A stretch of 64,000 bases of DNA from Candidatus Freyarchaeum deiterrae (GCA_037305845.1 CP147778.1:32001-96000), one strand, 5' to 3'. Numbered from the stretch's first letter, positions 5,321 to 58,755 are shown. Program-made: numbers and translations. The notes: a model not told the origin generated them from the letters alone.

Positions 5321-5511
5321 TTTTTGGAAAGAATCTCATCAGTAAGAGTACTGAAAGATATCGGAAATGTAGGTAGTGTAGCTTACTGAAACGTTTCTTG
5401 TAAAAGCAGTTCTCCAGTAACGAGGATTGAAAGTAATGAAATACTAAGATCGTGAAACCTAAATCCCAAAAAATCTTGCAAAAGAAGTTCCGCAGTAACG
5501 CGGATTGAAAG
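5321..5511 (+). CRISPR. Degenerate mini-array (3 repeats)
   Basis: Repeats at 5321 (very degenerate), 5397 and 5475 with 39 and 41 nt spacers. Confidence 0.85.
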
Positions 5512-5654
5512 TTAATTTTTTTGTCTGTTTTTGGAGTCACCTTAATGAAGTGTTAGCTTAAGTAGTCCTTAGCGGTAGGAATGTAACGACTAAGCTTTTT
5601 TAGAAATTATAGTAAGAGGAGATTTTTGTGTGGTTGGGCTTAGGTGGCTTTGAG

Positions 5655-6092
5655 TTACTGGTCGGTTTTTTCGTAGAATTTTTTTATGAATCTTTGGCTT
5701 GGGTTGTGGACGCTTTTCGCGTTTTCTAGGGCTTCTTTGGCGTCTTTTTCGTCGAAGAGTTCGCTTGCCGGTTTTCCGTCTTTTTCGATGCCGTAGACGC
5801 TGGGTATTCTTTTTAGTGAGAGTTCTCTTGAAATCTGCCTTATTTTTGGTATCTCTTTTTTGAACCATTCGGGGAAACTGTTGCTATAGTATTCCAGGAT
5901 GTCGCCTACGTCGTGTACTTTGGGATATTCCACTCCTAGTACTCTTAGACACGCTTTTAGGGATAGTTCCACACATTCTTGGGAGTATCTTACAGTGTCG
6001 GGGTAGTCGCCTCTTCCGAGTGCGGACTCGGCATCAGTGAGTCTGCTTTTCGCCCGCCGGAGGAAGTCTATGGCTATGCTGTCGGTTCTCAG
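5655..6092 (-). CDS. HEPN domain protein (partner of upstream MNT), probable CTG start
   Basis: Frame extends upstream of the ORF track as RTDSIAIDFLRRAKSRLTDAESALGRGDYPDTVRYSQECVELSLKA; HDV and RIPSVY motifs; CTGA overlaps the MNT stop. Confidence 0.85.
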   Translation of the reverse strand: MRTDSIAIDFLRRAKSRLTDAESALGRGDYPDTVRYSQECVELSLKACLRVLGVEYPKVHDVGDILEYYSNSFPEWFKKEIPKIRQISRELSLKRIPSVYGIEKDGKPASELFDEKDAKEALENAKSVHNPSQRFIKKFYEKTDQ

Positions 6093-6829
6093 AGCTCGAT
6101 CACCTCACCTTCTTTCACATGGTCTTTGAGCTGCCAGTACCAGTCTCCTTTTGGGGTGATGCTTTTTTTGGCCCCCATCTCCTCCAGTTTTTTCTTTAGC
6201 TCTGAGAGCACGTTTTTCATAAAATTGTTTCTGTCGAATATTATCAAGGAGTCTGTGACCATGTCGAGGTAGAATGGTTGGTTCACACGGGCTTCCTCGG
6301 GCGTTAGTAAAACTGTATTTACGTTGGGGAACGCCCCGCTACTTTTCCATAGGGAGAGCTTAGTGGCGGTCAGCTCCTCGAAGAGGCATGAGGCATCTCT
6401 GACTCGTTCACTGTAGCTTTCGGGTAAGCCTTTTACCACTGTAAGGAAGTCTAGGTCGCTGTTCTTTCCGGCTTCACCGCGCGCAACCGAGCCGAAGAGC
6501 ACAACGGAGAAGACCCGACCATTGTACTTCTTGAAAAACTCGCTTACGAATCGCCGAATAAGGGGAATATACTCCCTCTGCCTTATCCGGCTCATCCAAC
6601 TATCGTCCACTACGCCGAGAACAATCATCATAGGATCCAACGCGCTGTATACCCCTCTGCCCCTCCTTTCGATATAACCTGCCTTGTGGAGTCGGGAGAG
6701 TAGAACTCTCAAATTTTGCCCCTCAAGGTTTAGCTCCTCTTTGAGCTTCTCTATAGTAAAGGGTTCGCTGCCGTAGTTGAGATATATCTTCGAGTAAAAC
6801 TGGCCGAGCCACGCAGGAACCCACATCAT
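6089..6829 (-). CDS. wHTH-fused minimal nucleotidyltransferase (MNT)
   Basis: N-terminal wHTH (LLSRLHKAGYIERRGRGVY); LFGSVARGE...SDLD motif. Confidence 0.9.
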   Translation of the reverse strand: MMWVPAWLGQFYSKIYLNYGSEPFTIEKLKEELNLEGQNLRVLLSRLHKAGYIERRGRGVYSALDPMMIVLGVVDDSWMSRIRQREYIPLIRRFVSEFFKKYNGRVFSVVLFGSVARGEAGKNSDLDFLTVVKGLPESYSERVRDASCLFEELTATKLSLWKSSGAFPNVNTVLLTPEEARVNQPFYLDMVTDSLIIFDRNNFMKNVLSELKKKLEEMGAKKSITPKGDWYWQLKDHVKEGEVIEL

Positions 6830-7174
6830 ATAATCACCTACTTATTAATAATTACCAAATAGTACACTAATTTAAAAGCCTTGCTCCAAAGTGACAAAAT
6901 AACGTAAAGTAGAATGATTCAACCAAGAAACACATGGCTATCTCTAAGCCCGGCCAGCTTAGTTACATCTAGTTAATTTCAACGTTTGTGGTTCAACATA
7001 TTTATCACAATCGAGCAGTTTTAAGGATACGCGTCTAATACTCTGGAATTTTAAGGGATAAACAAGAAAAAATAAAAACAAGAACGATGCCAAAATAAGA
7101 GAGAAGATATTCCTACAACTAGTTTTACGATACATTATGGAGGGAGAAGGAACATAATCGACCTCTGGATAGAA

Positions 7175-7987
7175 ATGGTCGCCACAGACTCCGGAAGAGT
7201 GAACCCCTTCACCGGACACCTCGTAAGAGGAGCCCTGCTGAACCTAATCAAAAACGCCGACCCCGACCTAGCCCAAAAACTCCACGAACCCCACCAGCAG
7301 AGACCCTACAGCGTCACACCCGCCGCACCCGTAGCCCACCAAAGAAACATACGCGAAAACCTCTGGTGGATACAGCCCGGAGAACACGTAAGATTCCACG
7401 CCGGATTCCTACAAGACCACATAGGAGAAAAAGCCTTCCAAAAAATCCTAGAAGGCAGGCCGGAAATAAAACTCGCAGAAACCCCCTTCACACCCGTGAG
7501 AATAGAACTCAAGAGGACAACGTACGAAGAACTGATGAAAACCGCCCAACCAGAACCCGTAATAACCATTAGGTTCCACTCACCCACCCAGCTCCCAATA
7601 ATAGGAAGAGACTTCCCCCTATTATTCCCAGACCCAAGATACGTGTACGGAAACCTAGCCCGACTATGGAACCAAAACGCACCACCACAAGTACAGGTAG
7701 ACACCCAGCAGCTACACGACTGGATAGAAAAAAACGTCTACATACGCAAATACCAACTACAAACCAGAGAGATAGACGTAGGAAAACAGGTAAAACTCGC
7801 AGGATTCACAGGAACCCTAGAATACCACCTAAACAGCACAGATGAATACGCACCTTGGATAAACATACTCACACGGTACGCAACCACAGCCAACACCGGA
7901 GCCAAAAGAACCACCGGAATGGGAGCCACACAAAAAATAGAACACACCAAACAAAACCAAAAACAAACACCAAAAGAAAATTCCTAA
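7175..7987 (+). CDS. cas6: CRISPR pre-crRNA endoribonuclease Cas6
   Basis: LHE...RPYSV, F-SPT, FPDP, GFTG and C-terminal TGAKRTTGMG G-loop; frame stays open a few codons upstream (possible ATA start at 7154). Confidence 0.92.
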   Translation: MVATDSGRVNPFTGHLVRGALLNLIKNADPDLAQKLHEPHQQRPYSVTPAAPVAHQRNIRENLWWIQPGEHVRFHAGFLQDHIGEKAFQKILEGRPEIKLAETPFTPVRIELKRTTYEELMKTAQPEPVITIRFHSPTQLPIIGRDFPLLFPDPRYVYGNLARLWNQNAPPQVQVDTQQLHDWIEKNVYIRKYQLQTREIDVGKQVKLAGFTGTLEYHLNSTDEYAPWINILTRYATTANTGAKRTTGMGATQKIEHTKQNQKQTPKENS

Positions 7988-8053
7988 ACGTCAAACCAAA
8001 CTACAAAGAGACCAGAACAAAATGGCCAAGCAAAACAAGAAGAACTATTTAAA

Positions 8054-8126
8054 ATGTTCGAGTGAACCCTCTCAAAAGAAGCCTTTATGAGACTCCAAAA
8101 CAAAAAATAGATAATAAAATATAACC
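8054..8126 (+). promoter_or_regulatory. CRISPR leader (homologous to main-array leader)
   Basis: TGTTCGAGTGAA..CAAAAGAAGC.TTTAT...AATATAACC matches 46712-46784. Confidence 0.85.
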
Positions 8127-8238
8127 CTTGCAAAAGAAGTTCCTCAGTAACGAGGATTGAAAGTAGCGTATTGCTCAGTTGTCGGGATCCAAATTGTCGA
8201 ACTTGCAAAAGAAGTTCCTCAGTAACGAGGATTGAAAG
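8127..8238 (+). CRISPR. Mini-array, 2 perfect repeats and 1 spacer
   Basis: Exact A-variant repeats at 8127 and 8202 with a 38-nt spacer. Confidence 0.95.
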
Positions 8239-8312
8239 TGTAAATATGCGACAAATCCATGATGTAATTATATTATAATTTAATAATATTATAAAATTTT
8301 GGATTGAGTCAT

Positions 8313-8750
8313 TTATTCTAAAAATTCTTGAGGAGTAGAAAGATTGAGTTCTGGTATTCTTTCAAAGTGTTTTTTATTTTTAGTTATTAAAATAAGTTTT
8401 GTTATTCTCGCCTGTGCACCTATGAAAACATCTCTTATCTCTAAGGGCGACCCTTTCTTTTCCAACTGTACGTAAATCTCTGATGCCTCAATTGCTGTTT
8501 GTTCATCAAAAGAAAGTATTTGTGTGTGACTGAAAAGAGTGTTTGCTTCGCTCATCGCTTTTTCGGGTTGAGGGCTTAACCTAGTTCCGCGATAAATCTC
8601 AAAAACCGTTACAGCACTCACGTAAGCCGCATATTGTCGTTCATCTATCTTGTTGAATATTTTAACGGCTTCGGGTTGGGGTTTGCGCTTAAGATAATCA
8701 ATAATAACATCTGTATCAAGCATTATTTTTTGGGTTTCCATGTTTTCCAC
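8313..8750 (-). CDS. vapC: VapC/PIN toxin
   Basis: LDTDVIIDYL, TVFEI, RDVFIG, TKNKKHFERI. Confidence 0.92.
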   Translation of the reverse strand: MENMETQKIMLDTDVIIDYLKRKPQPEAVKIFNKIDERQYAAYVSAVTVFEIYRGTRLSPQPEKAMSEANTLFSHTQILSFDEQTAIEASEIYVQLEKKGSPLEIRDVFIGAQARITKLILITKNKKHFERIPELNLSTPQEFLE

Positions 8751-8959
8751 ATCCGTCTAGCATCATCCATAAAGTCCTCTGTACTTTCTATATGCTCCCA
8801 TGCTCCAGCAAGCTCCTTGAGGGAGGGGGATTTGATAAAAACAATTTTACCCTCCTCTTCCTTAACTATCAATTCGTCACCAATTTTCACATCTATCTTT
8901 TTTCGAATCTCTAGAGGAATAGTGATCTGAAATTTTCTTGTTACTTTAACCTTCAACAC
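8723..8959 (-). CDS. AbrB/MazE-family antitoxin
   Basis: VTRKFQITIPLEIRKK...GDEL; overlaps vapC. Confidence 0.9.
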   Translation of the reverse strand: MLKVKVTRKFQITIPLEIRKKIDVKIGDELIVKEEEGKIVFIKSPSLKELAGAWEHIESTEDFMDDARRMWKTWKPKK

Positions 8960-9192: not shown

Positions 9193-9298
9193 TCTGCAAA
9201 AGAAGTTCCTCAGTAACGAGGATTGAGAGAGCGTGAGGAACAAAAATCATGTTAAATATGGCATTCTCAGACTTGTAAAAGTAGTTTCTCAGTAAGAG
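9193..9298 (+). CRISPR. Degenerate mini-array (2 repeats)
   Basis: Near-consensus repeat 9193-9229, 42-nt spacer, truncated repeat from 9272. Confidence 0.85.
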
Positions 9299-9302
9299 GT
9301 GG

Positions 9303-9460
9303 CCATGTTATATTTGAGAGTGGAGTTAGATACTCTCGTGTTCTTCCAAAGCTCACTGAACAGAATCTTACCACCTGCATGAGCCAAACATTCCAAAACA
9401 GACCTCCTACTCCTCCTTCTAAGAACGAGTCTAAAGAGTATACAGAACGCTTTTTGAAGT
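9303..9460 (-). pseudogene. wHTH fragment, paralog of the N-terminus at 17080-17239
   Basis: Translates RRSVLECLAHAGGKILFSELWKNTRVSNSTLKYN versus LRAVLGELALAGGETRFSELWKSTEIS.STLDYN. Confidence 0.7.
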
Positions 9461-9535
9461 GGTTGTGCAGTTCGTGATATGGAAGCTTATCTATATTTTT
9501 ATATGTCTTTGATATATCTTAATATTGGTGTTAGT

Positions 9536-9856
9536 ATGGATGTTACGATAAATCAGATTATGGAAATTCTTTCTGAAGGACCGAAAACTCCTGACGAAAT
9601 TGCTAAAAGGTTAGGGGTTTCATGGGCTACTGCAAATGGTAAGCTTCACCGATTGGTCGGAAGTGGAAAGGCCGACTATATCAGAAAAGGTAGGGTAAAT
9701 GTTTTTTATCTCAAATCGCCTCAGAGCATTAGATTCAATGTACCTCCATGGGTTAACCCCAAAAGCCTTAGCGAATTGGCAGAAGAGCTTGAGGAGTATT
9801 TTGAGGAAGGGATAACCGCAGAAGAAGCTGTTAGAAGGGAGCGTAGAAAATATTGA
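9536..9856 (+). CDS. wHTH antitoxin
   Basis: GPKTPDEIAKRLGVSWATA HTH; overlaps the PIN gene. Confidence 0.8.
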   Translation: MDVTINQIMEILSEGPKTPDEIAKRLGVSWATANGKLHRLVGSGKADYIRKGRVNVFYLKSPQSIRFNVPPWVNPKSLSELAEELEEYFEEGITAEEAVRRERRKY

Positions 9857-10332
9857 AAATCGCGCTTGATACGGGAGTGCTTGTTGTCTCCATTAAGAGG
9901 ATAGGCGAGAAATATCATCAAGAAGCTGTTCAAATCGCAGACCGCATTAAAAATTTTAAAAGCAACTGCGTATCTTCCTCTCTCGTACTTATCGAACTTC
10001 CCGGTGCTCTGGCTTCCTCCACCACAATGCCAATTGAGAAAATATACACAGCAGAAGCCTCAATACAGGAAAACTTTAATCTAGTAATCCTGCCCTTCCA
10101 CCCATATGTTGACACGACTGTGAACCTGATACTTGAATTCCGCGAATTAAAGCGAAGACTAGGTATCGAAGCAGCGGACTTTCACCACTTAGCCACAGCT
10201 ATAGATGAAAGGTGCGAAGCCTTTGTAACGGTGGATGACCACCACCTACTAAAAGGAGAGACAAAAGAAGCCCTAAACAAATACATCAAAATACTAAACC
10301 CGAAGGAAGCCCTCGAAATTTTCAAACAATAA
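9853..10332 (+). CDS. PIN domain toxin
   Basis: IALDTGVLV, LIEL, ADFHHLATA, FVTVD. Confidence 0.88.
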   Translation: MKIALDTGVLVVSIKRIGEKYHQEAVQIADRIKNFKSNCVSSSLVLIELPGALASSTTMPIEKIYTAEASIQENFNLVILPFHPYVDTTVNLILEFRELKRRLGIEAADFHHLATAIDERCEAFVTVDDHHLLKGETKEALNKYIKILNPKEALEIFKQ

Positions 10333-10537: not shown

Positions 10538-10763
10538 AGGGAGGACATTCAAAGCTTATGCATGCCAAGAAGAGATTATGAACCAGTAAACTTTGACGGA
10601 GAAACGCTCACGCTCAAGGCTAAAAACGAAAACGCCCTTACCACCAGGTACGCTCTAGCCAATATACTAAGCAGACTGCTGTACAGCAAGGGAGTGCTCG
10701 TCCTGAAGTTCAAACCACTGAAAGGCCAGAACGAAACCCTAACCAACGAGATAGAGCTCCTCA
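10538..10763 (+). pseudogene. Fragment of unknown multi-copy 'gene X', fused to a CRISPR half-repeat
   Basis: Paralog of 14688-15086 up to NEIE.L, then continues as repeat sequence. Confidence 0.8.
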
Positions 10764-10849
10764 GCAACGAGGATTGAAAGCCTAATACTTGGTTCAAGTT
10801 CTAATTGTTGTCTTGCAAAAGCGGGTCCTCAAATAACGAGGATTGAAAG
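10755..10849 (+). CRISPR. Half-repeat, 31-nt spacer and degenerate repeat
   Basis: AGCTCCTCAGCAACGAGGATTGAAAG (to 10780) and a repeat at 10812-10849. Confidence 0.85.
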
Positions 10850-10961: not shown

Positions 10962-11327
10962 ATGGAGGAGATATGGATAAACTCCATGAGCTTTTCTTCA
11001 CCGGATTTTGTTTCACATTTTTCGGGAATCTCTCCTATGAACCATGAGCAGTATATTGAGTTCAACAGAGCGGTTATGGCAGCGTTTCCCGATTTTAGGC
11101 AAACGGTTAAGGATATGATTGTTGAGAGAGATAAAGTTATGCTTTGCATGGTAGGTAGGGATACGCGTACAGGAAATTTTCAGGATATTCCGCCTACTGG
11201 GAAACGGTTTGAAATTACGGGGATGGCTATACGCCGAATAGTAGGTGGCAAAATCATTGAAGAGTGGGCGAATCCTGATCAACTAGGTTTGATGCAGCAA
11301 ATTGGAGCAATTCCGAAACGGCGATAG
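10962..11327 (+). CDS. SnoaL-like ester cyclase (N-terminus apparently disrupted)
   Basis: AFPD, GNFQDIPPTGK, GKIIEEW...DQLGLMQQIG; the expected SLEKNKAVA start lies out of frame near 10912. Confidence 0.75.
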   Translation: MEEIWINSMSFSSPDFVSHFSGISPMNHEQYIEFNRAVMAAFPDFRQTVKDMIVERDKVMLCMVGRDTRTGNFQDIPPTGKRFEITGMAIRRIVGGKIIEEWANPDQLGLMQQIGAIPKRR

Positions 11328-11562
11328 AATATTTAGAGCTTGGTGTTGAAAGGTAGGGTGTTTATTTTTTATTTTTTTAATCTTTGAGGAAATAAGTGTG
11401 TATTCCGATTCGTCTGTTTTGGGGAGAAGTTTTTATACTTCTTTGTGTAACTTTTAGTATGTTTTTAGTGTCTGGCAGGCAAGCTGCGATTCGGGTTAGC
11501 TGTTTCGACTGTTTTAGGGTTTAGTAGTGTCGGCTTCTGTTTTTGGAGCAGTGGTCGTGTTG

Positions 11563-11955
11563 ATGAATATTATTGATAGTGTCAAAGAGCGTTTGGAAAA
11601 GAATGATAATGTTGTCTTCGCCTATGTGTATGGATCCTACGCTAGGGGAAAAGCTACTAGGTTTAGCGACTTGGATATTGCTGTTTTTTTAAGGGACACT
11701 GGTCATGAGGGGTTTAGGGAGCTGCTAGCCGAGTTGCCTGTGGATGCGGATGTTGAGTTCGATGTTAGAGTGTTGAATGATGCTCCTCCGCTCTTCAGAT
11801 ACAATGTTGTCAGGGAGGGAAAACTGTTGTTCGTCAAGGATAAAGGGATTCACGAGACCTTTGTTTACGACACTCTTGTCTCGGCGCTAGAGTTGAGAGA
11901 GGCTCTAACCAGCATGAGGGAGGAGAGGTTGAGGAGGGTTCTTGATGCTCTTTGA
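11563..11955 (+). CDS. MNT antitoxin
   Basis: YVYGSYARG...SDLDIAV. Confidence 0.9.
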   Translation: MNIIDSVKERLEKNDNVVFAYVYGSYARGKATRFSDLDIAVFLRDTGHEGFRELLAELPVDADVEFDVRVLNDAPPLFRYNVVREGKLLFVKDKGIHETFVYDTLVSALELREALTSMREERLRRVLDAL

Positions 11956-12364
11956 AACTGTTGCCGACGCTGTTAAGGTCTTGGAAGAACTCAGGGAGAA
12001 GAGCCTAGAGGAGATAGCTGGAGACACCGTTTTGCTCGGAAGCGTTCTGTGGTATCTTTACGTGACTGTGCAGGGCTGCATAGACATAGCCCTCAAAACA
12101 ATCTCAAAGCTTACTCTCAGAGCACCTGAAAGTTACGGTGACGCGTTCAAAGTTCTCAGAGAAGGAGAACTGATATCGGAAGAGCTAGCCAAAAGCCTTA
12201 TCGCAATGGCCCGTTTTAGACACGTTTTAGCTCATGTATACACCAAGCTTGACTTGGATCTGATATACGATATGTTGCACCACGACATTGAAGAGGTCAA
12301 AGAATTCTTGAAGACTTTAGCCGCGAATCTCCGAGAAAGAAACATAGAGTTAAGCGAATTCTAA
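11942..12364 (+). CDS. HEPN (DUF86) RNase toxin
   Basis: PESYGDAF and the FRHVLAH Rx4H motif. Confidence 0.9.
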   Translation: MMLFETVADAVKVLEELREKSLEEIAGDTVLLGSVLWYLYVTVQGCIDIALKTISKLTLRAPESYGDAFKVLREGELISEELAKSLIAMARFRHVLAHVYTKLDLDLIYDMLHHDIEEVKEFLKTLAANLRERNIELSEF

Positions 12365-12456: not shown

Positions 12457-12568
12457 TCTGCAAAAGAAGTTCCTAAGCAGCGAGGATTGAAAGTCCAGAA
12501 TCTCGGCTACGCTGCAACTGCGGATCGTTTACTTGTAAAAGAAGTTCCTCAGTAAAGAGAATTGCATC
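12457..12568 (+). CRISPR. Degenerate mini-array (2 repeats)
   Basis: Repeats at 12457 and 12532 with a 38-nt spacer. Confidence 0.85.
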
Positions 12569-12674
12569 AGTATGGTTTACGCGTCCATCGTGCGGATACA
12601 TGAATTCTACCTGATAATATTTTTATGCAGATATGATGTTATTTACTCAGATGCGATTTTGGAGCGTGGTGTAA

Positions 12675-12911
12675 GTGCAGAAACTTGTTTTTACCGTGGT
12701 TGTTGAGAGGGATGAGGACGGCTACCTCGTAGCTTCAGTTCCAGAGTTGCCCGGTTGCCATACCCAAGCAAGAACCCTAGACGAATTAATGCTGAGAGCA
12801 AAAGAGGCCATAGAACTCTACATTGAGGTAGAAAGTAAAATAGTTGAGGAAATTAAAAAGAGAGAACTGGTTGGAATCCAGTTTGTCGTGGTTACTGAAA
12901 ATGAGCCTTAA
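12675..12911 (+). CDS. hicB: HicB-family antitoxin
   Basis: DEDGYLVASVPELPGCHTQARTLDE..AKEAIELY. Confidence 0.92.
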   Translation: MQKLVFTVVVERDEDGYLVASVPELPGCHTQARTLDELMLRAKEAIELYIEVESKIVEEIKKRELVGIQFVVVTENEP

Positions 12912-13128
12912 ACCCCTACCCGCCGAAAAGATAATCCGCGTCCTTAAAAAAGTGGGATTCGAAATCGTAAGGCAGAAGGGAAGCCATGTTATTCTCAAAA
13001 ACCCAGAAGGAAGAATCACTGTTGTCCCCCTCCACAAGGGTGAAGAAATAGGCAGAGGACTCCTACTTAAAATTATTAAAGACGCTGGCTTAAAAAAAGA
13101 AGAATTCCTAGACCTCATCAGAAAATAG
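12901..13128 (+). CDS. hicA: HicA-family toxin
   Basis: GF...RQKGSHV, VVPLH, GLLLKIIKDAG. Confidence 0.92.
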   Translation: MSLKPLPAEKIIRVLKKVGFEIVRQKGSHVILKNPEGRITVVPLHKGEEIGRGLLLKIIKDAGLKKEEFLDLIRK

Positions 13129-13204
13129 CTACCACACTTCTACTAACAAAGAGAAGAAGCAAAAAAAGATAAAAATTTGGAAACTAAACAAAAGGGTGCA
13201 TAGA

Positions 13205-13387
13205 ATTGATAATTGACCTCATCTTTTTCAAATAATTTTAATTCGGACTAATCGATTTAGTTTTCTTCATTGGTGTGGTTTTGGGACTTTCGATTTTATT
13301 AGTCAGGTCTGTTAATTTAATGCTACCTCTTTCAGCTAGTATTTTAAGTATATCCAAATTTAACCTGTCAAGGTCCATCGGGAGCAT
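13205..13387 (-). pseudogene. Decayed wHTH regulator fragment
   Basis: LDRLNLDILKILAERGSIKLTDLTNKIESPKTT, then frameshifted KLNRLVRIKII. Confidence 0.5.
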
Positions 13388-15866: not shown

Positions 15867-15888
15867 GGGGCACCCTCCAGTGGCTCTG

Positions 15889-22817: not shown

Positions 22818-22834
22818 AAGTTGGGGGTGAAAAT

Positions 22835-49700: not shown

Positions 49701-52630
49701 AAGAAGTTCCTCAGTAACGAGGATTGAAAGTTTATGTTGGGAATATTCACTCGTAAACCTAAAAGAAACTTGCAAAAGAAGTTCCTCAGTAACGAGGATT
49801 GAAAGACATGTCACCGGAACAGTACGCCGGAAAAGAGAGCGCTTGCAAAAGAAGTTCCTCAGTAACGAGGATTGAAAGTCCTTCTCCTTTTCTGGGTCCT
49901 TGTACATTTTCTTGCTTGCAAAAGAAGTTCCTCAGTAACGAGGATTGAAAGGGTATGATTGTGGAGCGGGTTATGGATGAGCGGGGACTTGCAAAAGAAG
50001 TTCCTCAGTAACGAGGATTGAAAGCTGTATAGAAGTAGCTTGTATATTGCGCCACATACCTGAACTTGCAAAAGAAGTTCCTCAGTAACGAGGATTGAAA
50101 GCAAAATAGGCGCCCTAAAATCACAACTCAGTTTTTAACTTGCAAAAGAAGTTCCTCAGTAACGAGGATTGAAAGTTAATTCGCTTAGTTGACAGATATA
50201 GACGTGTTTATCTTGCAAAAGAAGTTCCTCAGTAACGAGGATTGAAAGGGTATTCCAACCGCATATACTATCTCCGTTAAGTTCACTTGCAAAAGAAGTT
50301 CCTCAGTAACGAGGATTGAAAGTAACCAAGAATGTTCCGGTGAGTGATATTCAATCATTCTTGCAAAAGAAGTTCCTCAGTAACGAGGATTGAAAGTACA
50401 CGTACCAAGTGGAACCCAGAAACAGGAGCAGAAGCTTGCAAAAGAAGTTCCTCAGTAACGAGGATTGAAAGGGATTAGCTCCGCTAAGAGTATCTGAGTA
50501 TTACACACCACTTGCAAAAGAAGTTCCTCAGTAACGAGGATTGAAAGTGTTCCATTAAAATCACCAAGAATAAAAGAACAAATAGCTTGCAAAAGAAGTT
50601 CCTCAGTAACGAGGATTGAAAGTAATTTCTTTCATATTTTTCACCATTTTCTTTTTTTAACTTGCAAAAGAAGTTCCTCAGTAACGAGGATTGAAAGAGA
50701 AACGAGTTGAACAGATCGCAACTAGAAGCCCTCACTTGCAAAAGAAGTTCCTCAGTAACGAGGATTGAAAGTTCTTTTTGAAAAATATCCCACGAATCTT
50801 TATCTGATGCTTGCAAAAGAAGTTCCTCAGTAACGAGGATTGAAAGTGTTGTTTCTCTAAGTATTCTATACGGTTTTTTAATCTTGCAAAAGAAGTTCCT
50901 CAGTAACGAGGATTGAAAGTGTTATGCTGATTTCCTTTATATGGCAACAAAAATAGCTTGCAAAAGAAGTTCCTCAGTAACGAGGATTGAAAGAATAGGT
51001 CATGGGTACACCTTAAATAAAGGTGTACTCTTCTTGCAAAAGAAGTTCCTCAGTAACGAGGATTGAAAGACTACTAGACCACGAAATAATCTACAAGGAC
51101 AAACAACTTGCAAAAGAAGTTCCTCAGTAACGAGGATTGAAAGAAAGAAATTGATGTGAAGGAAAGAATCAAGGAATGCACTTGCAAAAGAAGTTCCTCA
51201 GTAACGAGGATTGAAAGGTTTGGGGGCTGATTAATACCGCAACATTTCTAGTGGGCTTGCAAAAGAAGTTCCTCAGTAACGAGGATTGAAAGGATTCTTG
51301 GACATTCCAAGCGGGATGGAACATGACAAGCTCTTGCAAAAGAAGTTCCTCAGTAACGAGGATTGAAAGATGCCTATAATTACGAAGACTAAAATAAGAC
51401 TTAAGATACTTGCAAAAGAAGTTCCTCAGTAACGAGGATTGAAAGATTTACTTCTGGTTCTTTGTAGTAGGTTACAGAGTTGTACTTGCAAAAGCAGTTC
51501 CTCAGTAACGAGGATTGAAAGTAGTAAATTGGTTTTTTCTCAATCTCATTATATTTCAACTTGCAAAAGAAGTTCCTCAGTAACGAGGATTGAAAGACTC
51601 CGTGCCCTATTCCCCACGGTGGATCCGTTGCACAACTTGCAAAAGAAGTTCCTCAGTAACGAGGATTGAAAGACGGTGAACGGTCACAGTCCCTCGACCG
51701 CTGTTCAGGTCTTGCAAAAGAAGTTCCTCAGTAACGAGGATTGAAAGCATAAGACTACCCATAAGATTCTCGCTAACACTAGACACTTGCAAAAGAAGTT
51801 CCTCAGTAACGAGGATTGAAAGTAATGGACCAATCTGTTCTTTGAGAGAATTTAGTAACTTGCAAAAGAAGTTCCTCAGTAACGAGGATTGAAAGCTTTT
51901 CTTTCACGAAACGTACTTGATTCTACGTAATAGCTTGCAAAAGAAGTTCCTCAGTAACGAGGATTGAAAGTTGCGCTTTTAATGCAGGATAAAAGGGATT
52001 TGACTACTTGCAAAAGAAGTTCCTCAGTAACGAGGATTGAAAGGATCCTCCGTGACTATGTGTTTGAATTTTTCTTTCTGCCTTGCAAAAGAAGTTCCTC
52101 AGTAACGAGGATTGAAAGGTTAAATGCTCTTGACGATTCATCGTGGGGTGCTTGGGCTTGCAAAAGAAGTTCCTCAGTAACGAGGATTGAAAGTCAAGTC
52201 AATCTTGGAGCTTCAAGGATTTGAATTACTCTTGCAAAAGAAGTTCCTCAGTAACGAGGATTGAAAGTCAGGGTTATCGAACTGAAGGTCCTTGCAGACC
52301 TCCTTGCAAAAGAAGTTCCTCAGTAACGAGGATTGAAAGTCCAACTGCGGCAGCTTGTTCGTGGCCATAATTATTTCTTGCAAAAGAAGTTCCTCAGTAA
52401 CGAGGATTGAAAGATTTTCTTCGTTATGCAGTTGAAGAACATGGAGTGAGTCTTGCAAAAGAAGTTCCTCAGTAACGAGGATTGAAAGTGTACCTATTAC
52501 GCGTGGGAGGGATGCTTTTTGGGACTTGCAAAAGAAGTTCCTCAGTAACGAGGATTGAAAGTATATTTTCATCCTCCTATTCGGTTCTTAAATATTCGCA
52601 CTTGCAAAAGAAGTTCCTCAGAAACGAGGA
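46785..52630 (+). CRISPR. CRISPR array 2 (about 79 repeats, 78 spacers)
   Basis: CTTGCAAAAGAAGTTCCTCAGTAACGAGGATTGAAAG with about 74-bp period; terminal repeat at 52601 is degenerate. Confidence 0.99.
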
Positions 52631-52647
52631 AGTTGATAATATCGAAG

Positions 52648-53123
52648 TTACAGAACTTCATCAAGACTTTCAACTGGAGAATAGAATCCCATTTTTATCA
52701 TTTCTGATAGTAAATGATTCCCCTGTTCCTTCGTAACAATTTTTTTGTCTACCGCTAAAACCAGTATACCGATTGTACCCGATACGGGGACACTAAGTTT
52801 TTGGGCGTGTCTTCTTGCGTCCCAATCATCGGTGAGTATTTTGAAGCCTCTGGTTTTTGCAACAGCTATGCAGGATGCTTCTCCTTTTCCTAATTTTTCA
52901 GCAAGTTTGTAGAAAAGCTCTGTTTCTTCTGAATTCATTTCTAAAATGTTTATTCGGCCCCATTCTGCGTCTGGGGTAACGCCTCTTTCTATTCCAAATT
53001 TTATTTCTTCGACTACTTCGCGAGTAGTGTATAGAGATTTACCACGGCTTTTTGAAGTATGTTCAATCTTTTGGTAAGTAGAAAATTTGAAATAACAGTA
53101 GTGTTTGCAATCACTTTTCCCAT
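52648..53123 (-). pseudogene. PIN/DUF3368-like toxin, frameshifted
   Basis: MGKVIANTTVISNF... shifts near 53030 into LGKGEASCI, LTDD..AR, GTIGIL. Confidence 0.8.
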
Positions 53124-53404
53124 AGTTTCGCTGCCTCTGCTTCAGCCATGGCATCCTCTTTTGATGATGCTCTGATTGGTACCCCTTTTTCTCTCAGCTC
53201 TTTCTGGAGTTCGATTCTGGTTACTCCAAGTAATTCGGCAGCCTTGCTCAGGTTTATCTTCCCGTCAACGTAGGCTCCAATGATTATCGATTTGTATACT
53301 TCGGGGTTACTTCTCCGAAGTTCGCTGAGAAGCTTGTTTATAACTTCGGGCTGAACTTCACCGATTTTTTTTAACTCATCTAACATCCAAGTCATACGTC
53401 TCAA
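53111..53404 (-). CDS. UPF0175-family antitoxin
   Basis: YVDGKINLSKAAELLGV..IEL. Confidence 0.85.
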   Translation of the reverse strand: MRRMTWMLDELKKIGEVQPEVINKLLSELRRSNPEVYKSIIIGAYVDGKINLSKAAELLGVTRIELQKELREKGVPIRASSKEDAMAEAEAAKLWEK

Positions 53405-53547
53405 CTCGTAATCATTCTATGGTAATAGATTCGTTACATTTAAGGTTTCGTTTATTATGAAAAATTTTTGAGTGGAGCTCGTTTAGGGTGGGTTATGGTG
53501 GTTTTAGTATTTTCTGTGCTTTCTTCTCCATTAGTTTTTTGGCGTTG

Positions 53548-53612
53548 ATGACTGTTATTAATCGAGTTAAAGAGCGTTTGGAAGAGAATGATAATGTTGT
53601 CTTTGCCTATAG
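53548..53612 (+). pseudogene. 5' fragment of an MNT paralog of 11563-11955
   Basis: AAAGAGCGTTTGGAA.AGAATGATAATGTTGTCTT.GCCTAT shared with the 11563 gene. Confidence 0.7.
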
Positions 53613-53768
53613 CGTTCTCTTCAAACATGGGCAGGAACCTTTGGGAAAATGGACACGAGAAGCGTAGAAAAGGACGAATGCTTTATCTCTACGTTTTGTT
53701 TCATCGATAAGAGTATCTTTTTCTTTCCTTTTCGACTCGTGCTTTTCAGCTTTGCTCATGAGCATTTC
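53607..53768 (-). pseudogene. Thioredoxin-like fragment
   Basis: KAFVLFYAS followed out of frame by CPFSQRFLPMFEE. Confidence 0.4.
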
Positions 53769-53801
53769 ATCTTATTCTTCGTATACCAGTATTTGCAGTA
53801 G

Positions 53802-54016
53802 CTGACATACTCCCCTCCTTGAAAGGTTGGGGGTTCTGCACTTCTATGTTAGTGTTGTTAGAAGTGTGGGGTGTGTCACCGCCCGGTTAACGGCTTCCGC
53901 ACCCTCCTTCTTCTTTTTCGGGTGAGCAAGCCTTATTATTTTCTTTCCTCTTTTTTCGGTATTTAAATTCCCCGCAATTCATTCCTGCCCTTAAAGGGCC
54001 CGGGGCTTTCTTGCTA
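53802..54016 (-). mobile_element. Non-autonomous IS200/IS605-family mini-element
   Basis: Left-end-like GCAAGAAAGCCCCG..CCCTTTAAGGGCAGGAATGAATTGC and right-end-like GAACCCCAACCTTTCAAGGAGGGGAGTATGTCA hairpins; no ORF. Confidence 0.7.
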
Positions 54017-54050
54017 ATCATCTTTCTGTAATGGCGAGATCCAATATCGA

Positions 54051-54491
54051 TTATGTTATTCCAAGCTGTTTCATCATTCCGACTACATCGTAGAAAAGGC
54101 GTTCTTCCGTAATTTCACCGTTTTTCCAAGTGGCAACGGTGCAGAACTCAAGCTTAGCCGTTTTGTGGGTAGGCTGAACGACTCTTCCATCAGGTATTTT
54201 CATTGGTCCTATCATTGTGGCTGTCCAGTCAGCGACAGAACATGTGTAATTGCCATCGCCGAAAAGAATCTTGTAAGGATTATTAACGAGTTTATTATCG
54301 AAGGTTTTGAAGAATTCAACAGATTCTTTGTAATGTGCCTCTCGACCTCTTGTTGGCTCCGGCTGACCTGGCCAATAAACAGCAACGTTTGCCGCATAGC
54401 GTTTCTTGAATGTCTCCCAATCCTGATTGTTCCAAGCATCATCCAAAGTCATCATCAATTTCATGTTTCTCTTCACACTCATCCAAATCAC
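54051..54491 (-). CDS. SnoaL-like ester cyclase/NTF2 protein
   Basis: AWNNQDW, GPMK.PDG...PTHK, WKNGEITEE..YD..GMMKQLG. Confidence 0.88.
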   Translation of the reverse strand: MIWMSVKRNMKLMMTLDDAWNNQDWETFKKRYAANVAVYWPGQPEPTRGREAHYKESVEFFKTFDNKLVNNPYKILFGDGNYTCSVADWTATMIGPMKIPDGRVVQPTHKTAKLEFCTVATWKNGEITEERLFYDVVGMMKQLGIT

Positions 54492-54554
54492 CTTAACTTA
54501 GTTTGGGGCTACCTAGGGTAATAAGTTCTGCGAGGACTGCTGCTTCAATCTCAA

Positions 54555-54591
54555 CTTGCAAAAGAAGTTCCTCAGAAACGAGGATTGCATC
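54555..54591 (+). repeat. Solitary CRISPR repeat with conserved trailer
   Basis: CTTGCAAAAGAAGTTCCTCAGAAACGAGGATTGCATC; trailer is duplicated after 12532. Confidence 0.9.
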
Positions 54592-54692
54592 ATTATGGTT
54601 TACATGTCCATAGTGCGGATACATGAAGTCTATGAGATAATATTTTTATGCAGATATAAAGGTATGAAAATTCCTAGAGATATGATATGGTT

Positions 54693-55024
54693 TTATTGCT
54701 CCAGTATTTCCACTAGTTTACGGATGACTTCATTTGTTTTATCCGGCTTTAGGTGTCCTGCTCGATAAAGGGCGATACTGCGGTCAGCGGTGAAGATTCG
54801 ATTTGGTCGAATGTTGCTTTTCCTCTTGAGAGACCTGTTTCAAAATCTTGATTATTAATTGGGATCGCGTATTGATCACTCATGTTTTGACTGGTAATTT
54901 GACAGAGAATAAGGTCGTCTCCCGTCAATGTTGCCAGAATAAGAGCGGGGCGTCGTTTCGCCTGCGTCAAATCTGAGAAGGGGAAGGGAATAACAACTAC
55001 GTCACCTTTCACAAATTCTGCCAA
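54693..55024 (-). pseudogene. mazF: MazF/PemK toxin, frameshifted
   Basis: KGDVVVIPFPFSD...KRRPAL, CQITS; -1 shift near 54833, then SNIRPNRIFTAD. Confidence 0.85.
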
Positions 55025-55203
55025 GCTTCGTCCTCCTCTGGTAGAAGCCAGTCCTTCTTCAAAGAGGATTCACTCAGGATGGCGGCTTCAAATTTCTCAT
55101 GGGCTTTCTTATTTCTTAGGAATCTGATGAAGTCCAGTATTTCTTCCAGAAGAGCGTCTGGCATCTGTTCTATTTCTCTTTTGATCATTTCCTTGCTGTC
55201 CAT
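55009..55203 (-). CDS. DUF2281-like antitoxin
   Basis: LEEILDFIRFL, SESSLKKDWLLPEEDEAW. Confidence 0.85.
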   Translation of the reverse strand: MDSKEMIKREIEQMPDALLEEILDFIRFLRNKKAHEKFEAAILSESSLKKDWLLPEEDEAWQNL

Positions 55204-55375: not shown

Positions 55376-55548
55376 CTCGTAAAAACAGTTCATCAGAAAC
55401 AAATATTGGAAGTTTTGTGTATTTTATACAAACATTTAAATATTAATTTCTTACTAAAGGAGTTCCTCAGAAACGAGGATTGAAAGTTCTATATTGTCCT
55501 CTTAACTTTTTTTGAGCCTTAATTGCAAAAGAAGTTTCTCAGCAACTA
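55376..55548 (+). CRISPR. Degenerate mini-array (3 repeats)
   Basis: Repeats at 55376 (weak), 55450 and 55522 (partial) with 72-74 bp spacing. Confidence 0.75.
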
Positions 55549-55618
55549 GTTAAATATCAACCATTTTGCTCTCTTTTTAGCTCTAAGACATTAGAGTCTA
55601 ACAGAACTTGCTTTATCT

Positions 55619-55837: not shown

Positions 55838-56022
55838 ATGCCTCAAGAATTATGGGGTACAACCCCGAGATACATACAAGAGAAGTCGTTCTAACCCCTA
55901 GCGACGAACAAGCTCTGAGAAAGAAACGCAACTAATTTTGTCCCAATGGCGGGAAAGGTTTAACTATTATAGGTTTTTCTGTAGTAGACATAGGATAAAA
56001 CATGTTAGGTGGAGGTAGAAAA

Positions 56023-57138
56023 ATGTTGAAAATAGGTACAGTGGGTCCCACTTTTCCTCCTATAGAGCGTATCCCGGAGCAGGCTAAGAGACTTGAGGAG
56101 AGTGGATATGACTCCATATGGTTCCCAGACCATCTCATGGGATGGTATCCTCAGAGCATTTGGACTCCCGAAAATGCCGGTGCTTTAGCCAATTTAAGCC
56201 CCCATGTCTTCTTTGAAACAACTCTATCAATTGCTCTCGCCGCCTCAACAACGAGCAAACTCCTCATTGGTTCCAGTGTAACCGAGTCGATTAGGCATCC
56301 CCCCGCAATGCTCGCTCAGAGTTTTGCAACCCTGGAGCATATCACCAAGGGCAGATGCATACTTGGAATAGGGGCTGGAGAAAAAGAGAACGTAGAGCCC
56401 TACGGTTTAAAATATGAGAAGATAGTCAGCAGGCTTGAGGAGGCTTTACAGATTATCCGCCTCTGCTGGAACGCGGAAAGAGACGAACTCCTAAACTTTG
56501 ACGGAAAATTCTGGACTCTAAAAGACGCAGTGTTTGAACTACCACCATTTAAAAGCCGACCCCCGATATACATCGGTGGTGCGAGGCCGAGGATGGCTAA
56601 GCTTGTAGGAACATATGCCGACGGTTGGATACCCTTTAATATCAGCTTGGACGATTACAAAAATCGAATCTCGATAATCAAAGAAGCTGCAAAAAAGGCA
56701 GGCAGAAAATACGATAACATCACAAAGGGTATGTTTAAGAGCATAATAATCGACGACAGCGAAGACGAATGCATAAGGATAATGCAAACGCCACTAATCA
56801 AAGCCCGAACGCTTCTCGAACCCTCAGAAACATTCGAAAAGTGCGGCTACGAGCACCCGCTCGGAAAGAAATACTACGGTCTAACAGACTTCGTACCCTC
56901 AAGACTATCAAAAAAGGAAGCTCTAGACGCAATTGAAAAAGTCCCCCTAGAAGTTGTCCAAGAGAGTTATCTCTGGGGAACCCCCGAAGAGGTCATCGAG
57001 AAACTGAACCAGTATATCAAGTTAGGAATGAGCCACTGGATAGTGTGGAACGAAACATACTTCGGAGACGCAAGCAAAGTAAAAAGCTCCTACACATGTA
57101 TAGGAAAAGTGATGAAATACTTCAAAGAATCCCAATAA
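56023..57138 (+). CDS. LLM-class (luciferase-like) flavin/F420-dependent oxidoreductase
   Basis: GYDSIWFPDH, RHPP..LAQ..ATL, GR.ILGIGAG, PPIYIG, YADGW. Confidence 0.93.
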   Translation: MLKIGTVGPTFPPIERIPEQAKRLEESGYDSIWFPDHLMGWYPQSIWTPENAGALANLSPHVFFETTLSIALAASTTSKLLIGSSVTESIRHPPAMLAQSFATLEHITKGRCILGIGAGEKENVEPYGLKYEKIVSRLEEALQIIRLCWNAERDELLNFDGKFWTLKDAVFELPPFKSRPPIYIGGARPRMAKLVGTYADGWIPFNISLDDYKNRISIIKEAAKKAGRKYDNITKGMFKSIIIDDSEDECIRIMQTPLIKARTLLEPSETFEKCGYEHPLGKKYYGLTDFVPSRLSKKEALDAIEKVPLEVVQESYLWGTPEEVIEKLNQYIKLGMSHWIVWNETYFGDASKVKSSYTCIGKVMKYFKESQ

Positions 57139-57208
57139 AGAAAGACTCGCACTCCCTCTTTTTTAATTAAGGCAGATTCACAAAAGACCGTTTAATGGGA
57201 GGGATGTA

Positions 57209-57661
57209 ATGAAGACTCTCATCATTTATGAATCATACCATCATGGTAACACTAAAAAAGTGGCAGAAGCCATAGCCGGAATGCTAGATGCAAAGCTAGC
57301 AACCCCCAGTGAGGTGGATGTCAATGCTCTCGGAGAGTACGACCTCATCGGCTTCGGGTCGGGAATATATTATGGACGTTACCACGAAAATGTGCTTGCG
57401 CTCATCGACCGTTTGCCTTCAATGAATAAAAAAGCATTTCTATTCTGTACATGCGGTTTGGAGAGGGGCGAGCGCTATACGACGGGGATAAGCAATAAGC
57501 TGGAGAAGAAAGGATTTACTATCGTTGGAAAATTCTCGTGCGCCGGCTGGGATACCAGCCCCGCAGTGGCGTGGATGGGCGGCATTAAAAAAGGACGCCC
57601 CAACGAAGCCGACCTTGAAAAGGCGAAAGATTTCGCAAAAGGCCTGAAAGGCCAAACATAG
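57209..57661 (+). CDS. Flavodoxin family protein
   Basis: YESYHHGNTKKVA, IGFGSGIYYG, GRPN..DL..A. Confidence 0.93.
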   Translation: MKTLIIYESYHHGNTKKVAEAIAGMLDAKLATPSEVDVNALGEYDLIGFGSGIYYGRYHENVLALIDRLPSMNKKAFLFCTCGLERGERYTTGISNKLEKKGFTIVGKFSCAGWDTSPAVAWMGGIKKGRPNEADLEKAKDFAKGLKGQT

Positions 57662-57728
57662 GTTAAACCTTTTTTATCGTAAGTTAGGTTTTCTAGGCTG
57701 AGTGAGTCTAGTTGGGCATCCAACTATT

Positions 57729-57916
57729 AAGGCAAAAGAAGTTCCTCAGAAACGAGGATTGAAAGGTATTCACCAAAACTTATTTTGAGAGAACAAATGA
57801 CGCCTTGCAAAAGAAGTCCCGCATTAATGAGGATTGAAAGAAATTAGTGATTGAAGTCTTCCCCTTCACAATGTAATGTCTTGCTAAAGAAGTTCTCATG
57901 TAATGGAGGTTGAAAG
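57729..57916 (+). CRISPR. Degenerate mini-array (3 repeats)
   Basis: Repeats at 57729, 57804 and 57880 with 38-39 nt spacers. Confidence 0.88.
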
Positions 57917-58105
57917 GCGTTTTTCTTTGTGTTTGGTTTAATTCTTTACCCTTATCGCAAAAGTTACACGAAAACTCCTTTACTGTTATGGAACCGAGGA
58001 AATGGTAGAAGAATATTTAAGAAAAAGAGTTGAATGAGATTCCTGAGAGTCTATGAGTGGGAAATAGAAAGCTTCAAGAAATGAGGTAGAAGAGAAGGGT
58101 AAATC

Positions 58106-58414
58106 ATGGATAGAAAATTGGATCTTGACGGGATATTAAAGACTTTGAGGCGGGTTATGCCGACTTTAAGGGAAAAATATAAAGTCAAATCTATAGGTGT
58201 TTTTGGTTCCTATGTAAGGAAAAAGCAGAGAGAGAGCAGCGATCTGGATATTTTGGTGGAGTTTGAGGAAGGGGCAAAGTTAAGCTTACTGGATGTTGTC
58301 GGTTTGGAGATTGAGCTGAGCGACCTGCTGGGTGTTAAAGTTGATTTAGTGGAAAAGAAGAACCTAAAACCGCATATTGGACAGCACATATTGGGGGAGG
58401 TTGTCTATGTATGA
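58106..58414 (+). CDS. MNT antitoxin
   Basis: GVFGSYVR...SDLDILVEF. Confidence 0.93.
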   Translation: MDRKLDLDGILKTLRRVMPTLREKYKVKSIGVFGSYVRKKQRESSDLDILVEFEEGAKLSLLDVVGLEIELSDLLGVKVDLVEKKNLKPHIGQHILGEVVYV

Positions 58415-58755
58415 AAGAGGGAAGAGACTACCGAGACTTTCTCGTGGATATTTTGAATGCTATAGGAGACATTGACAATTTCGTCGAGGACTTGGATTTT
58501 GAATCTTTCGTAGACAATAAGGAAAAGCTTTATGCAACTGTTTATTGCTTGCAAATCATAGGCGAAGCTGTAAAGAATATCCCCGAGGAGATAAAGAAAA
58601 AATATAAAAAGATACCCTGGCGGGAAATAGCAGGGATGAGAGATAAGCTCACTCACGGATACTTTGTCGTTGATTTCGAAAGAGTTTGGGAAACCGTAAA
58701 ACGAGATTTGCCGCCTTTAAAGGAGATCATAAATAAGATTTCAAAAGAGATATGA
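58411..58755 (+). CDS. HEPN (DUF86) toxin
   Basis: IIGEA, IPW..IAGMRDKLTHGYF. Confidence 0.93.
   Translation: MKEGRDYRDFLVDILNAIGDIDNFVEDLDFESFVDNKEKLYATVYCLQIIGEAVKNIPEEIKKKYKKIPWREIAGMRDKLTHGYFVVDFERVWETVKRDLPPLKEIINKISKEI

Follow-up and report, generated by a model that had tools for sequence, protein, structure and literature searches.

Orphan CRISPR repeats as probable array relics and crossover substrates in a hypervariable CRISPR-Cas/toxin-antitoxin island of Candidatus Freyarchaeum deiterrae

Introduction

The orphan CRISPR repeats that lie among toxin-antitoxin (TA) and accessory genes of Candidatus Freyarchaeum deiterrae, an Asgard archaeon with a genome of 3.58 Mb, are, judging from sequence comparison, probably what remains of CRISPR arrays within a hypervariable CRISPR-Cas/TA island, and they probably also serve as one of the crossover substrates by which this island is reshuffled. 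The island is contained in a window of 64 kb, which is the whole stretch of DNA analyzed here. An earlier note on the window had described a serial alternation of repeats and gene units, and had proposed that the repeats act either as landing sites of an integron-like array or as control points for Cas6 and Cascade.

Repeat census and assembly

The 37-nt array repeat at 46785-46821 of the window served as query in a gapped scan of the whole genome. CRISPR repeats were found at all 12 sites listed previously, no more than 1-2 nt from the positions given there, the site placed at 10755 being a 3' half-repeat at 10757-10780. The sites hold 22 copies, namely 5322/5397/5475 (site A), 8127/8202 (B), 9193/9272 (C), 10757 (half)/10812 (D), 12457/12532 (E), 15316 (F, minus strand), 16376 (G), 39480 (H, minus), 43114 (I, minus), 54555 (K), 55376/55450/55522 (L) and 57729/57804/57880 (M). 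Three further copies (g191966, g192041 and g3559147) occur in the rest of the genome, i.e., excluding the island and the three main arrays, and about one match per genome is expected by chance (the reversed and the complemented genome yielded one match each, at a score of 40). The two weakest of the 22 copies, 5322 and 43114, score 41; however, the former keeps the register of two good copies of the same site, and the latter has a better-preserved orthologue in contig C390 of the related assembly G002. An Rfam search gave no match, and half-repeats other than those listed were not found elsewhere in the island.

The observation that the repeats avoid intact genes holds without exception: none lies inside one, at a coding fraction of 0.68 (P ~1e-6), and one orphan repeat is fused to a truncated gene. 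As had also been noted, neither the I-B nor the cmr operon of the window contains an orphan repeat. Relatives differ in this respect, since repeats do fall inside cas gene clusters there (G002 contigs C404 and C324).

Mis-assembly of the window at the repeats, which had been named as a possible undoing of the pattern, is extremely improbable. Although contigs end at sites B and C, where 31-mers are identical to ones in the arrays, flat-depth Logan contigs of three independent runs pass through A, D, E, F and G (5322, 10812, 12457, 15316 and 16376), and the same layout recurs in other assemblies. The topology of a matching published genome was validated by long reads (PMC11291895).

Organization of the island

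The trailer part of CRISPR array 1 (65 repeats, start at g28041) occupies 1-866 on the plus strand, with its last repeat at 830. The four-gene type III block after this array is closed by site A (5322-5511, plus), a putative relic mini-array of three repeats. It is followed by a wHTH-MNT and HEPN toxin-antitoxin pair (5655-6829, minus) and by a plus-strand segment (7175-8238) of cas6, a copy of the leader (8055-8126) and site B, a perfect two-repeat array that is either collapsed or young. A vapBC pair of AbrB-type antitoxin and PIN toxin (8313-8959, minus) has upstream of it a 49-bp promoter remnant (8259-8307) of the 15889 module. Site C (9193-9307, plus), a likely relic with two repeats, the second degenerate at its 3' end, precedes a wHTH and PIN pair (9479-10332, plus). 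Site D (10539-10849, plus) combines a truncated copy of gene 14688, the half-repeat at 10757-10780, a 31-nt spacer and the repeat at 10812. A SnoaL gene and an MNT-HepT pair then follow with no repeat in between (10962-12364, plus).

Site E (12457-12568, plus), a two-repeat mini-array of the same apparent origin, and site G (16376-16448, plus), a repeat and spacer followed by the degenerate start of a repeat, form the left and right ends of a 3.9-kb block missing in G002. Bounded by the repeats at 12457 and 16376, the interval 12675-16155 contains hicBA, vapBC (13674-14356), gene 14688, the inverted repeat of site F (15316-15352, minus) and a vapBC-like pair (15471-16155). Gene 14688 (132 aa) belongs to no Pfam family and had no usable Atlas match.

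Further downstream, a run of about eight TA units (36028-42872) includes a single repeat, the solitary site H (39480-39516, minus), at the 5' edge of which G002 C390 has a rearrangement junction; the decayed solitary repeat of site I (43114-43150, minus) follows herA. CRISPR array 2 (46785-52637, plus) has about 79 repeats and ends in a terminal repeat at 52601 with a T22A loop variant. The adjoining minus-strand segment (52648-54491) carries a UPF0175-DUF3368 (PIN-type) pair, an MNT gene fragment, a MITE-like element (53799-54031) and a SnoaL gene. Site K (54555-54591, plus), a solitary repeat with the T22A variant and a duplicated trailer, is followed by an antitoxin and MazF/PemK pair (54749-55203, minus), the three-repeat mini-array of site L (55376-55558, plus), LLM oxidoreductase and flavodoxin genes (56002-57661, plus), a further three-repeat mini-array at site M (57729-57916, plus) and an MNT-HepT pair (58106-58755, plus). 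The mini-arrays at L and M are likewise read as relics.

Pfam assignments (PIN, MNT with HEPN/HepT, HicAB, MazF, UPF0175-DUF3368, SnoaL, LLM and flavodoxin) agree with the cargo first described. The unit size of 1-3 kb does not stand, as the measured block span is 0.8-4.5 kb. The alternation itself stands in part: about 12 of 28 unit junctions have a repeat, but it is not strict, with about 16 of the 28 lacking one (8 of 10 between 36 and 43 kb).

Duplicated cassette flanks, another feature of the original description, were recovered at 12531-12642 = 54554-54665 (the second repeat of site E with a 75-bp trailer), 8259-8307 = 16178-16226 and 11559-11625 = 53544-53610. The leader copy at 8055-8126 and gene 14688, present in four copies or fragments, are further duplicates. 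The truncated copy of that gene is joined to the 3' half-repeat by microhomology. Fragments of cas3, cas4 and csx abut repeats in relatives, and in L089 a multi-copy element lies 25 nt ahead of a leaderless array of six repeats.

Origin of the orphan repeats

The mini-arrays keep a register of 72-78 nt, each spacer is unique and the repeats belong to the resident family. Neighboring repeat groups are co-oriented in 23 of 27 cases (14 of 14 in relatives; P = 1.6e-4). The stem variant of the last repeat of array 1 (830) recurs at 5475, and the T22A loop variant is present in five of the eight repeats from 52601 on, whereas the orphans upstream of array 2 all lack it (Fisher P ~0.002). First repeats show a mismatch of 0.25 at positions 1-4 and last repeats one of 0.15 in the 3' tag, compared with about 0.02 in internal repeats; terminal repeats with such decay of the outer edge have been described (PMC8047081). 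These sequence features point to an origin of the orphan repeats in CRISPR arrays, each relic being reduced to 1-3 repeats. Identity between orthologous pairs is 0.68-0.89 for repeats and 0.72-0.89 for flanks, by which measure orphan repeats appear to drift neutrally, at the rate of the flanking DNA. Against the relic reading, half-repeats are scarcer than random breakage would predict.

The proposal that the repeats are 'debris from a fragmented array' is thus half of the answer: the relic origin is retained, but repeats also serve some crossovers. That they are debris and nothing else, i.e., inert scars of illegitimate rearrangement with no role in later shuffling, would agree with their neutral drift, with the formation of TA clusters also without repeats and with breakpoints that overall are not enriched at repeats. 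We consider it improbable, because two cases described below, a two-sided indel and a four-way set of flanks, show homology that stops at repeat boundaries and would hardly arise unless crossovers took place in the repeat.

Block exchange at repeats

The 3.9-kb block between 12457 and 16376 is missing from contig C271 of G002, where a single repeat stands in its place. On one side of this repeat the sequence matches the flank upstream of 12457 (92%), on the other the flank downstream of 16376 (~85%), and the shared sequence reaches about 17 nt into the spacer. It is the only clean two-sided empty site found for the blocks of the window. In a second case, two upstream flanks (HEPN-end and leader) and two downstream flanks (gene-14688 and C379-gene) occur in all four combinations (L100, L091, G002 C324 and G002 C379, from three assemblies), with homology beginning at repeat base 1. 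The contigs of relatives used in both cases belong to MAGs assembled from short reads, which may contain false joins at a repeat of 37 nt. Where repeat pairs share one flank, the other flank differs in 9 of 9 pairs, with identity there near random, and ordinary spacer loss can also produce such one-sided sharing. Because the same 37-mer borders unrelated gene blocks, crossovers there would move whole blocks.

Homology ends fall at repeats in 7 of 56 cases, against 14% expected, so that repeats account for a minority of junctions. The suggestion that repeats act as recombination sites therefore applies to some junctions (the two-sided indel, the four-way flank set and the nine pairs) but not to most, and breakpoints as a whole are not enriched at them. 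Relatives show the same layout with different cargo, including non-TA cargo in L089-L093, and most of the orthologous TA modules of four other species lack a repeat in their vicinity.

Capture at repeats

Sedentary chromosomal integrons and CALINs consist of serial, small, TA-rich units bounded by one repeated sequence, in an order that varies between relatives. The island is alike in all three respects, but it differs in having neither IntI, attC architecture nor one site per cassette, in units with their own promoters and in boundaries that are not fixed. The integron integrase IntI (TIGR02249) had no match in G000 and G002-G005. The only tyrosine recombinase (g3475130), 133 kb away, is nearest to archaeal XerA and falls below the cut-offs for XerA and IntI. 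The punctuating element, judged from the repeat itself, is a 37-nt CRISPR repeat with a 5-bp hairpin and not of attC type, and no fixed crossover point was seen, junctions lying 0-55 nt from the repeat, with truncated cas3, cas4, csx and gene-14688 fragments among them. Four aligned ends of TA modules had no conserved terminal motif or inverted repeat. Together with the homology ends and the mostly repeat-free TA orthologues, these results speak against integron-like landing sites.

A dedicated capture platform, in which an enzyme inserts gene-sized DNA at repeats (a giant spacer taken up by Cas1-Cas2, or the product of an unlinked recombinase), is unlikely. Junctions at most 4 nt from repeat base 1 (39516 vs G002 C390; G002 C49 3614 vs cas3; C96 vs L101; 54555 vs 12532), a cas1 open frame within the window and the gathering in this island of TA modules that are scattered in other species would fit it. 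The remaining junctions have offsets of 13-55 nt, however, and the two-sided case, which shares part of a spacer, is not a clean duplication of the repeat; the position and scores of the sole recombinase, the lack of IntI, the repeat-free junctions and the absence of breakpoint enrichment also count against it. The broader idea is rather unlikely as well: CRISPR repeats across domains would be attachment points of a gene-capture platform, and array ends would gather TA and cas modules as gene-sized spacers, possibly by Cas1-Cas2 acting on long DNA, in an integron-like shuffling without integrase. Repeat-to-repeat excision joints were not found in population contigs of four runs, from which rare variants are dropped. 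Apparent joints in run contigs were rejected, since other copies of the repeat or of duplicated fragments account for them.

Regulatory mini-arrays

Mini-arrays of the CreA/CreR type would be processed by Cas6 and guide Cascade to repress TA or cas promoters, leaving the host addicted to CRISPR-Cas. Sites B, C, D and E do have the form of repeat, spacer and degenerate repeat near cas or TA genes (G weakly so), and most first repeats retain the 3' tag and 3-4 of 4 stem pairs, by which some processing function is possible. In addition, mini-arrays beside TA cargo are known, and mini-arrays occur in about 37% of the composite I-B loci of archaea (10.1101/2023.03.03.530964). Nevertheless, we regard this explanation as quite unlikely. 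Among 23 spacers or tails, the best 5' seed runs measure 7-10, which is within the range of 219 control spacers, and the best match in promoter windows (P 0.07) is mismatched at positions 1-2. Mini-array spacers gave nothing above controls when compared with promoter windows, with the spacers of the main arrays and with the whole genome; as this search used no PAM, very short matches could have escaped it. Orthologous sites differ in partner flank or spacer in 9 of 9 pairs, the only spacer shared being that of G, at flank-level identity. The hairpin is lost in repeat 43114, the repeats drift like their flanks, and TA module orthologues in four species are mostly without repeats. Control by Cas6 or Cascade, and the addiction built on it, are thus unsupported by the spacers.

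The promoter match with P = 0.07, a 13-nt match of the site D spacer to 16250-16262 with mismatches at positions 1-2, was rejected as a target. A sense-strand bias relative to adjacent genes, as for Cas6 sites in mRNA, is not significant: read from the map, 8 of 12 repeats are in sense on their 5' side, and 7 of 12 on their 3' side.

Comparison with known systems

Shmakov et al. 2023 (10.1101/2023.03.03.530964) described standalone repeats and mini-arrays that accompany TA cargo in CRISPR-cas loci. The island shares with them the repeat-spacer-degenerate-repeat form outside arrays, the enrichment in archaeal composite I-B loci, the adjacency to TA genes and the association with gene-shuffling hotspots; that study regarded the units next to type III loci as degraded and without function. 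There, typically one mini-array occupies a conserved position and has a PAM-flanked promoter target, whereas 12 serial sites with changing spacers, exchange of flanks at the repeat and no targets found characterize the present case. CreTA and CrePA are CRISPR-repressed toxins (10.1101/2024.01.05.574328). Like the island, they have degenerate repeat pairs near toxin genes in a type I locus, but a search of the island gave no seed and PAM-type match to a toxin promoter, and its toxins are paired with protein antitoxins. Solitary repeat units and Racr are virus- or plasmid-borne and inhibit host Cas; the sites described here, in contrast, are chromosomal and lie among cas operons, in a window without an integrase.

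Repeat-mediated spacer loss, array collapse and recombination between arrays are on record (PMC8047081; PMC4390879, section 4.4 of the latter). Crossover between direct repeats, polymorphic terminal repeats and collapse to a leader and one repeat resemble the present case, but the intervals lost or swapped here are gene blocks of 0.8-4.5 kb, not spacers. Array disruption by insertions is described as rare in Sulfolobales (PMC4390879). vapBC pairs interspersed in archaeal CRISPR-cas regions are known from Acidianus hospitalis (PMC3119797; PMC4390879, section 8), and the sections concerned agree with our island in many diverse TA pairs, variable regions, cas cassettes and a proposed maintenance role; they differ in making no mention of relic repeats between TA pairs or of recombination there. 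An exchange of gene blocks at CRISPR repeats was not described in the literature searched, the coverage of which was partial.

Proposed mechanism and significance

If the orphan repeats are array relics and crossover substrates, mobile TA, cas and other modules would first enter or join arrays without site specificity, whether through microhomology joints, small mobile elements or insertions that duplicate the target, and the distal array would be cut from its leader. The established mechanism of repeat-to-repeat recombination would then strip the leaderless spacers down to 1-3 repeats, which would drift. As the comparison of relatives shows, crossovers in or beside the 37-mer delete, insert or swap whole blocks, with RadA or replication slippage as candidate agents. 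Blocks between direct repeats would be prone to deletion, and addictive TA and selected cas blocks would persist, which may keep relic repeats apart and enrich TA pairs.

A caution follows for similar loci: an orphan repeat is not automatically a regulatory RNA. The layout of the island resembles an integron yet lacks the integron's enzyme and fixed sites. The finding would give CRISPR repeats a second, DNA-level role, in which recombination between them, after gene blocks have settled there, moves whole defense and addiction modules and not spacers alone, and it offers a concrete route by which the known exchange of cas modules and the build-up of TA pairs in archaeal CRISPR islands may come about.

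Locus and genome features

The genome consists of one contig of 3,576,204 bp with a GC content of 40.7%. For the complete 3.58 Mb Ca. Freyarchaeum genome, which was obtained from wetland soil, long reads confirmed the topology (PMC11291895). The CRISPR content of the window comprises the end of array 1 (to 866), array 2 (46785-52637), a four-gene type III block, cas6 (7123-7969), an I-B module and cas4-cas2-cas1; also present are a Cmr module with Csx11 (17671-25114), herA with a NurA-like neighbor (43230-46230) and approximately 17 toxin-antitoxin (TA) pairs. The large subunit of the Cmr module is of the Csx11 type (TIGR02682), a marker of subtype III-C, whereas the published list of CRISPR types for this genome contains only I-B, III-A and III-D. 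Second copies of cas6 (95%) and of a csx-like block at 16566-17557 (73%) are located near array 3 (genome positions 2.693-2.696 Mb). Most or all relatives share a conserved herA/NurA-like pair and a conserved DUF2797 gene at the head of cas1-cas2-cas4 (34839-35738).

Gene 14688 (14688-15086; fragments at 10539-10763, 25297-25485 and 37692-37823) encodes a product of 132 aa that matched no Pfam family and yielded only 10 database matches, itself among them; two of the matches carry organism names, Freyarchaeota and Jordarchaeum. At every one of five additional loci inspected the gene adjoins cas genes, often immediately behind a repeat, and its product is a candidate lineage-specific CRISPR-linked protein.

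Origin of the orphan repeats

The orphan repeats are relics of CRISPR arrays and show neutral-like drift. All 12 sites claimed in the earlier note (5322-5511, 8055-8238, 9193-9307, 10757-10849, 12457-12568, 15316-15352 (-), 16376, 39480 (-), 43114 (-), 54555, 55376-55558 and 57729-57916) are real and hold 22 copies; the rest of the genome, with the three main arrays left out, holds 3, and the background rate is one marginal match per control genome. The note's statement that repeats almost never fall within intact genes held for every site (0 of 12). Units of 2-3 repeats with array spacing and unique spacers were found at eight of the sites. Of the 12 sites, those beginning at 5322, 10757, 12457, 15316 and 16376 are spanned by independently assembled contigs (three runs) with flat depth. 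The serial alternation of repeats and gene units is present but looser than had been claimed, approximately 16 of 28 unit junctions being without a repeat.

Of 27 pairs of neighboring repeat groups, 23 share one orientation. Array 2 ends in a repeat (52601) with the T22A loop variant; among orphans, this variant occurs only downstream of that array. The terminal repeat of array 1 (830) has a stem change in common with the repeat at 5475. The outer edges of repeat groups show decay, which internal repeats do not; decayed edges are typical of terminal repeats (PMC8047081). In nine flank-sharing pairs, conservation of the repeat is not above that of the flank. The site at 8055-8238 consists of a leader followed by two repeats, both perfect, and the same-genus genome G002 commonly has sites with a leader and a single repeat; both kinds of site look like collapsed arrays.

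In hybrid repeats (5397, 830 and G002 C49:4570) the 5' stem arm matches one genus-wide variant and the 3' arm a different one, a pattern expected from a crossover within the loop, and compensatory stem variants are used by relatives as full arrays. A decayed three-repeat group (L097:5890-6080, genome positions 191890-192077) lies distant from every array; its upstream flank also occurs in G004 C128 (6 repeats) and G005 C167 (3 repeats), where the spacers differ and a leader is absent.

Matching repeats were found in four of the five same-genus genomes (G001-G005). In G002 and in loci L089-L093 of another metagenome, arrays are followed by gene blocks and then by more co-oriented groups of 1-2 repeats, with cargo that includes TA pairs along with csx and cas genes, an operon for membrane proteins and further genes unrelated to TA; the layout is common to the genus. 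On contig C390 of G002 the two halves of the stretch 39516-40581 have exchanged places, and the wHTH-MNT gene is truncated on the 5' side. Orthologs of the window's TA genes (mostly 60-90% identical) are scattered over many contigs of G001, G003, G004 and G005, nearly all without a nearby repeat; the TA module therefore does not include the repeat.

Exchange and entry of gene blocks

In some cases gene blocks have been exchanged with their ends at repeats. A single repeat on G002 C271 joins the upstream flank of 12457 to the downstream flank of 16376, and the 3.9 kb between these repeats are missing. Its spacer resembles that of 16376 over the full length and that of 12457 over the first 15-17 nt (each P < 0.001, the null being random spacer pairs); the event was thus either a deletion in register or an insertion that duplicated approximately 54 bp. 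Two upstream flanks (the end of a HEPN gene or a leader) were each seen with both of two downstream flanks (gene 14688 or another gene), which gives all four combinations (L100, L091, G002 C324 and G002 C379), the homology between L100 and C324 beginning at repeat base 1. The repeat at 54555 is a duplicate of that at 12532 together with a 75 bp trailer, with homology starting at the repeat. In all nine flank-sharing pairs identity on the opposite side is random or nearly so, and ordinary spacer loss can be the source of some of them. Intergenic homology in the island ends within 10 nt of a repeat in 7 of 56 cases, no excess over the expected 14%; this count weighs against a dominant role of repeats in the junctions, although the test is weakened by the inclusion of gene ends from distant relatives.

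Junctions between repeats and foreign DNA lie 0-55 nt from the repeat edge, often with broken genes. A microhomology joint links gene 14688 to a half-repeat, fragments of cas3, cas4 and csx abut repeats in relatives, and a multi-copy element stands ahead of a leaderless six-repeat array. These features point to entry of the gene blocks by non-site-specific events. An element at 40778-41054, whose right end recurs at many G004 contig ends, is found ahead of a leaderless array in L089, and a MITE-like element of approximately 230 bp with hairpin ends (53799-54031) recurs in about 13 more places in the genome. A few junctions fall at repeat base 0-4, from which a Cas1-type joining mechanism may operate at repeats; that the repeats form a capture platform, i.e., attachment points gathering gene blocks, is unlikely, given the variable junctions. 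The island works in part like an integron, as the earlier note had proposed, but is not one: IntI was sought in five genomes and not found, and the sole tyrosine recombinase is far from the island.

Possible regulatory role

A role of the repeats as Cas6/Cascade control points was not borne out. Seed matches of the 23 mini-array spacers/tails were not unusual in the window relative to 219 main-array spacers, nor in promoter windows relative to 120 controls, in searches by seed complementarity alone; guides differ between orthologous sites, and the hairpin is lost in one orphan repeat. Because the tag and stem are kept in most first repeats, one or two sites may, judging from sequence, still have a regulatory role. 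At L028:2118-2154 (G005 C165), the 3' half of a repeat lies a few bases ahead of the start codon of an antitoxin orthologous to window 39794, and the TA module of the latter adjoins a repeat in the window's own genome and in G001 as well. If any TA transcript is linked to Cas6, this module is, on sequence grounds, the likeliest source.

Proposed mechanism and relation to known systems

Arrays would first be split by non-specific insertion; the leaderless part of the array would then collapse, and addictive blocks between direct repeats would survive preferentially. Mini-arrays with shuffled TA cargo are known (10.1101/2023.03.03.530964), as are recombination between repeats and between arrays (PMC8047081; PMC4390879) and vapBC pairs amid archaeal cas genes (PMC3119797; PMC4390879). 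The serial layout of repeats and gene blocks is a variant of known CRISPR-locus plasticity, each ingredient of which is already known. A literature search found no paper on the exchange, at CRISPR repeats, of gene blocks arranged in series.
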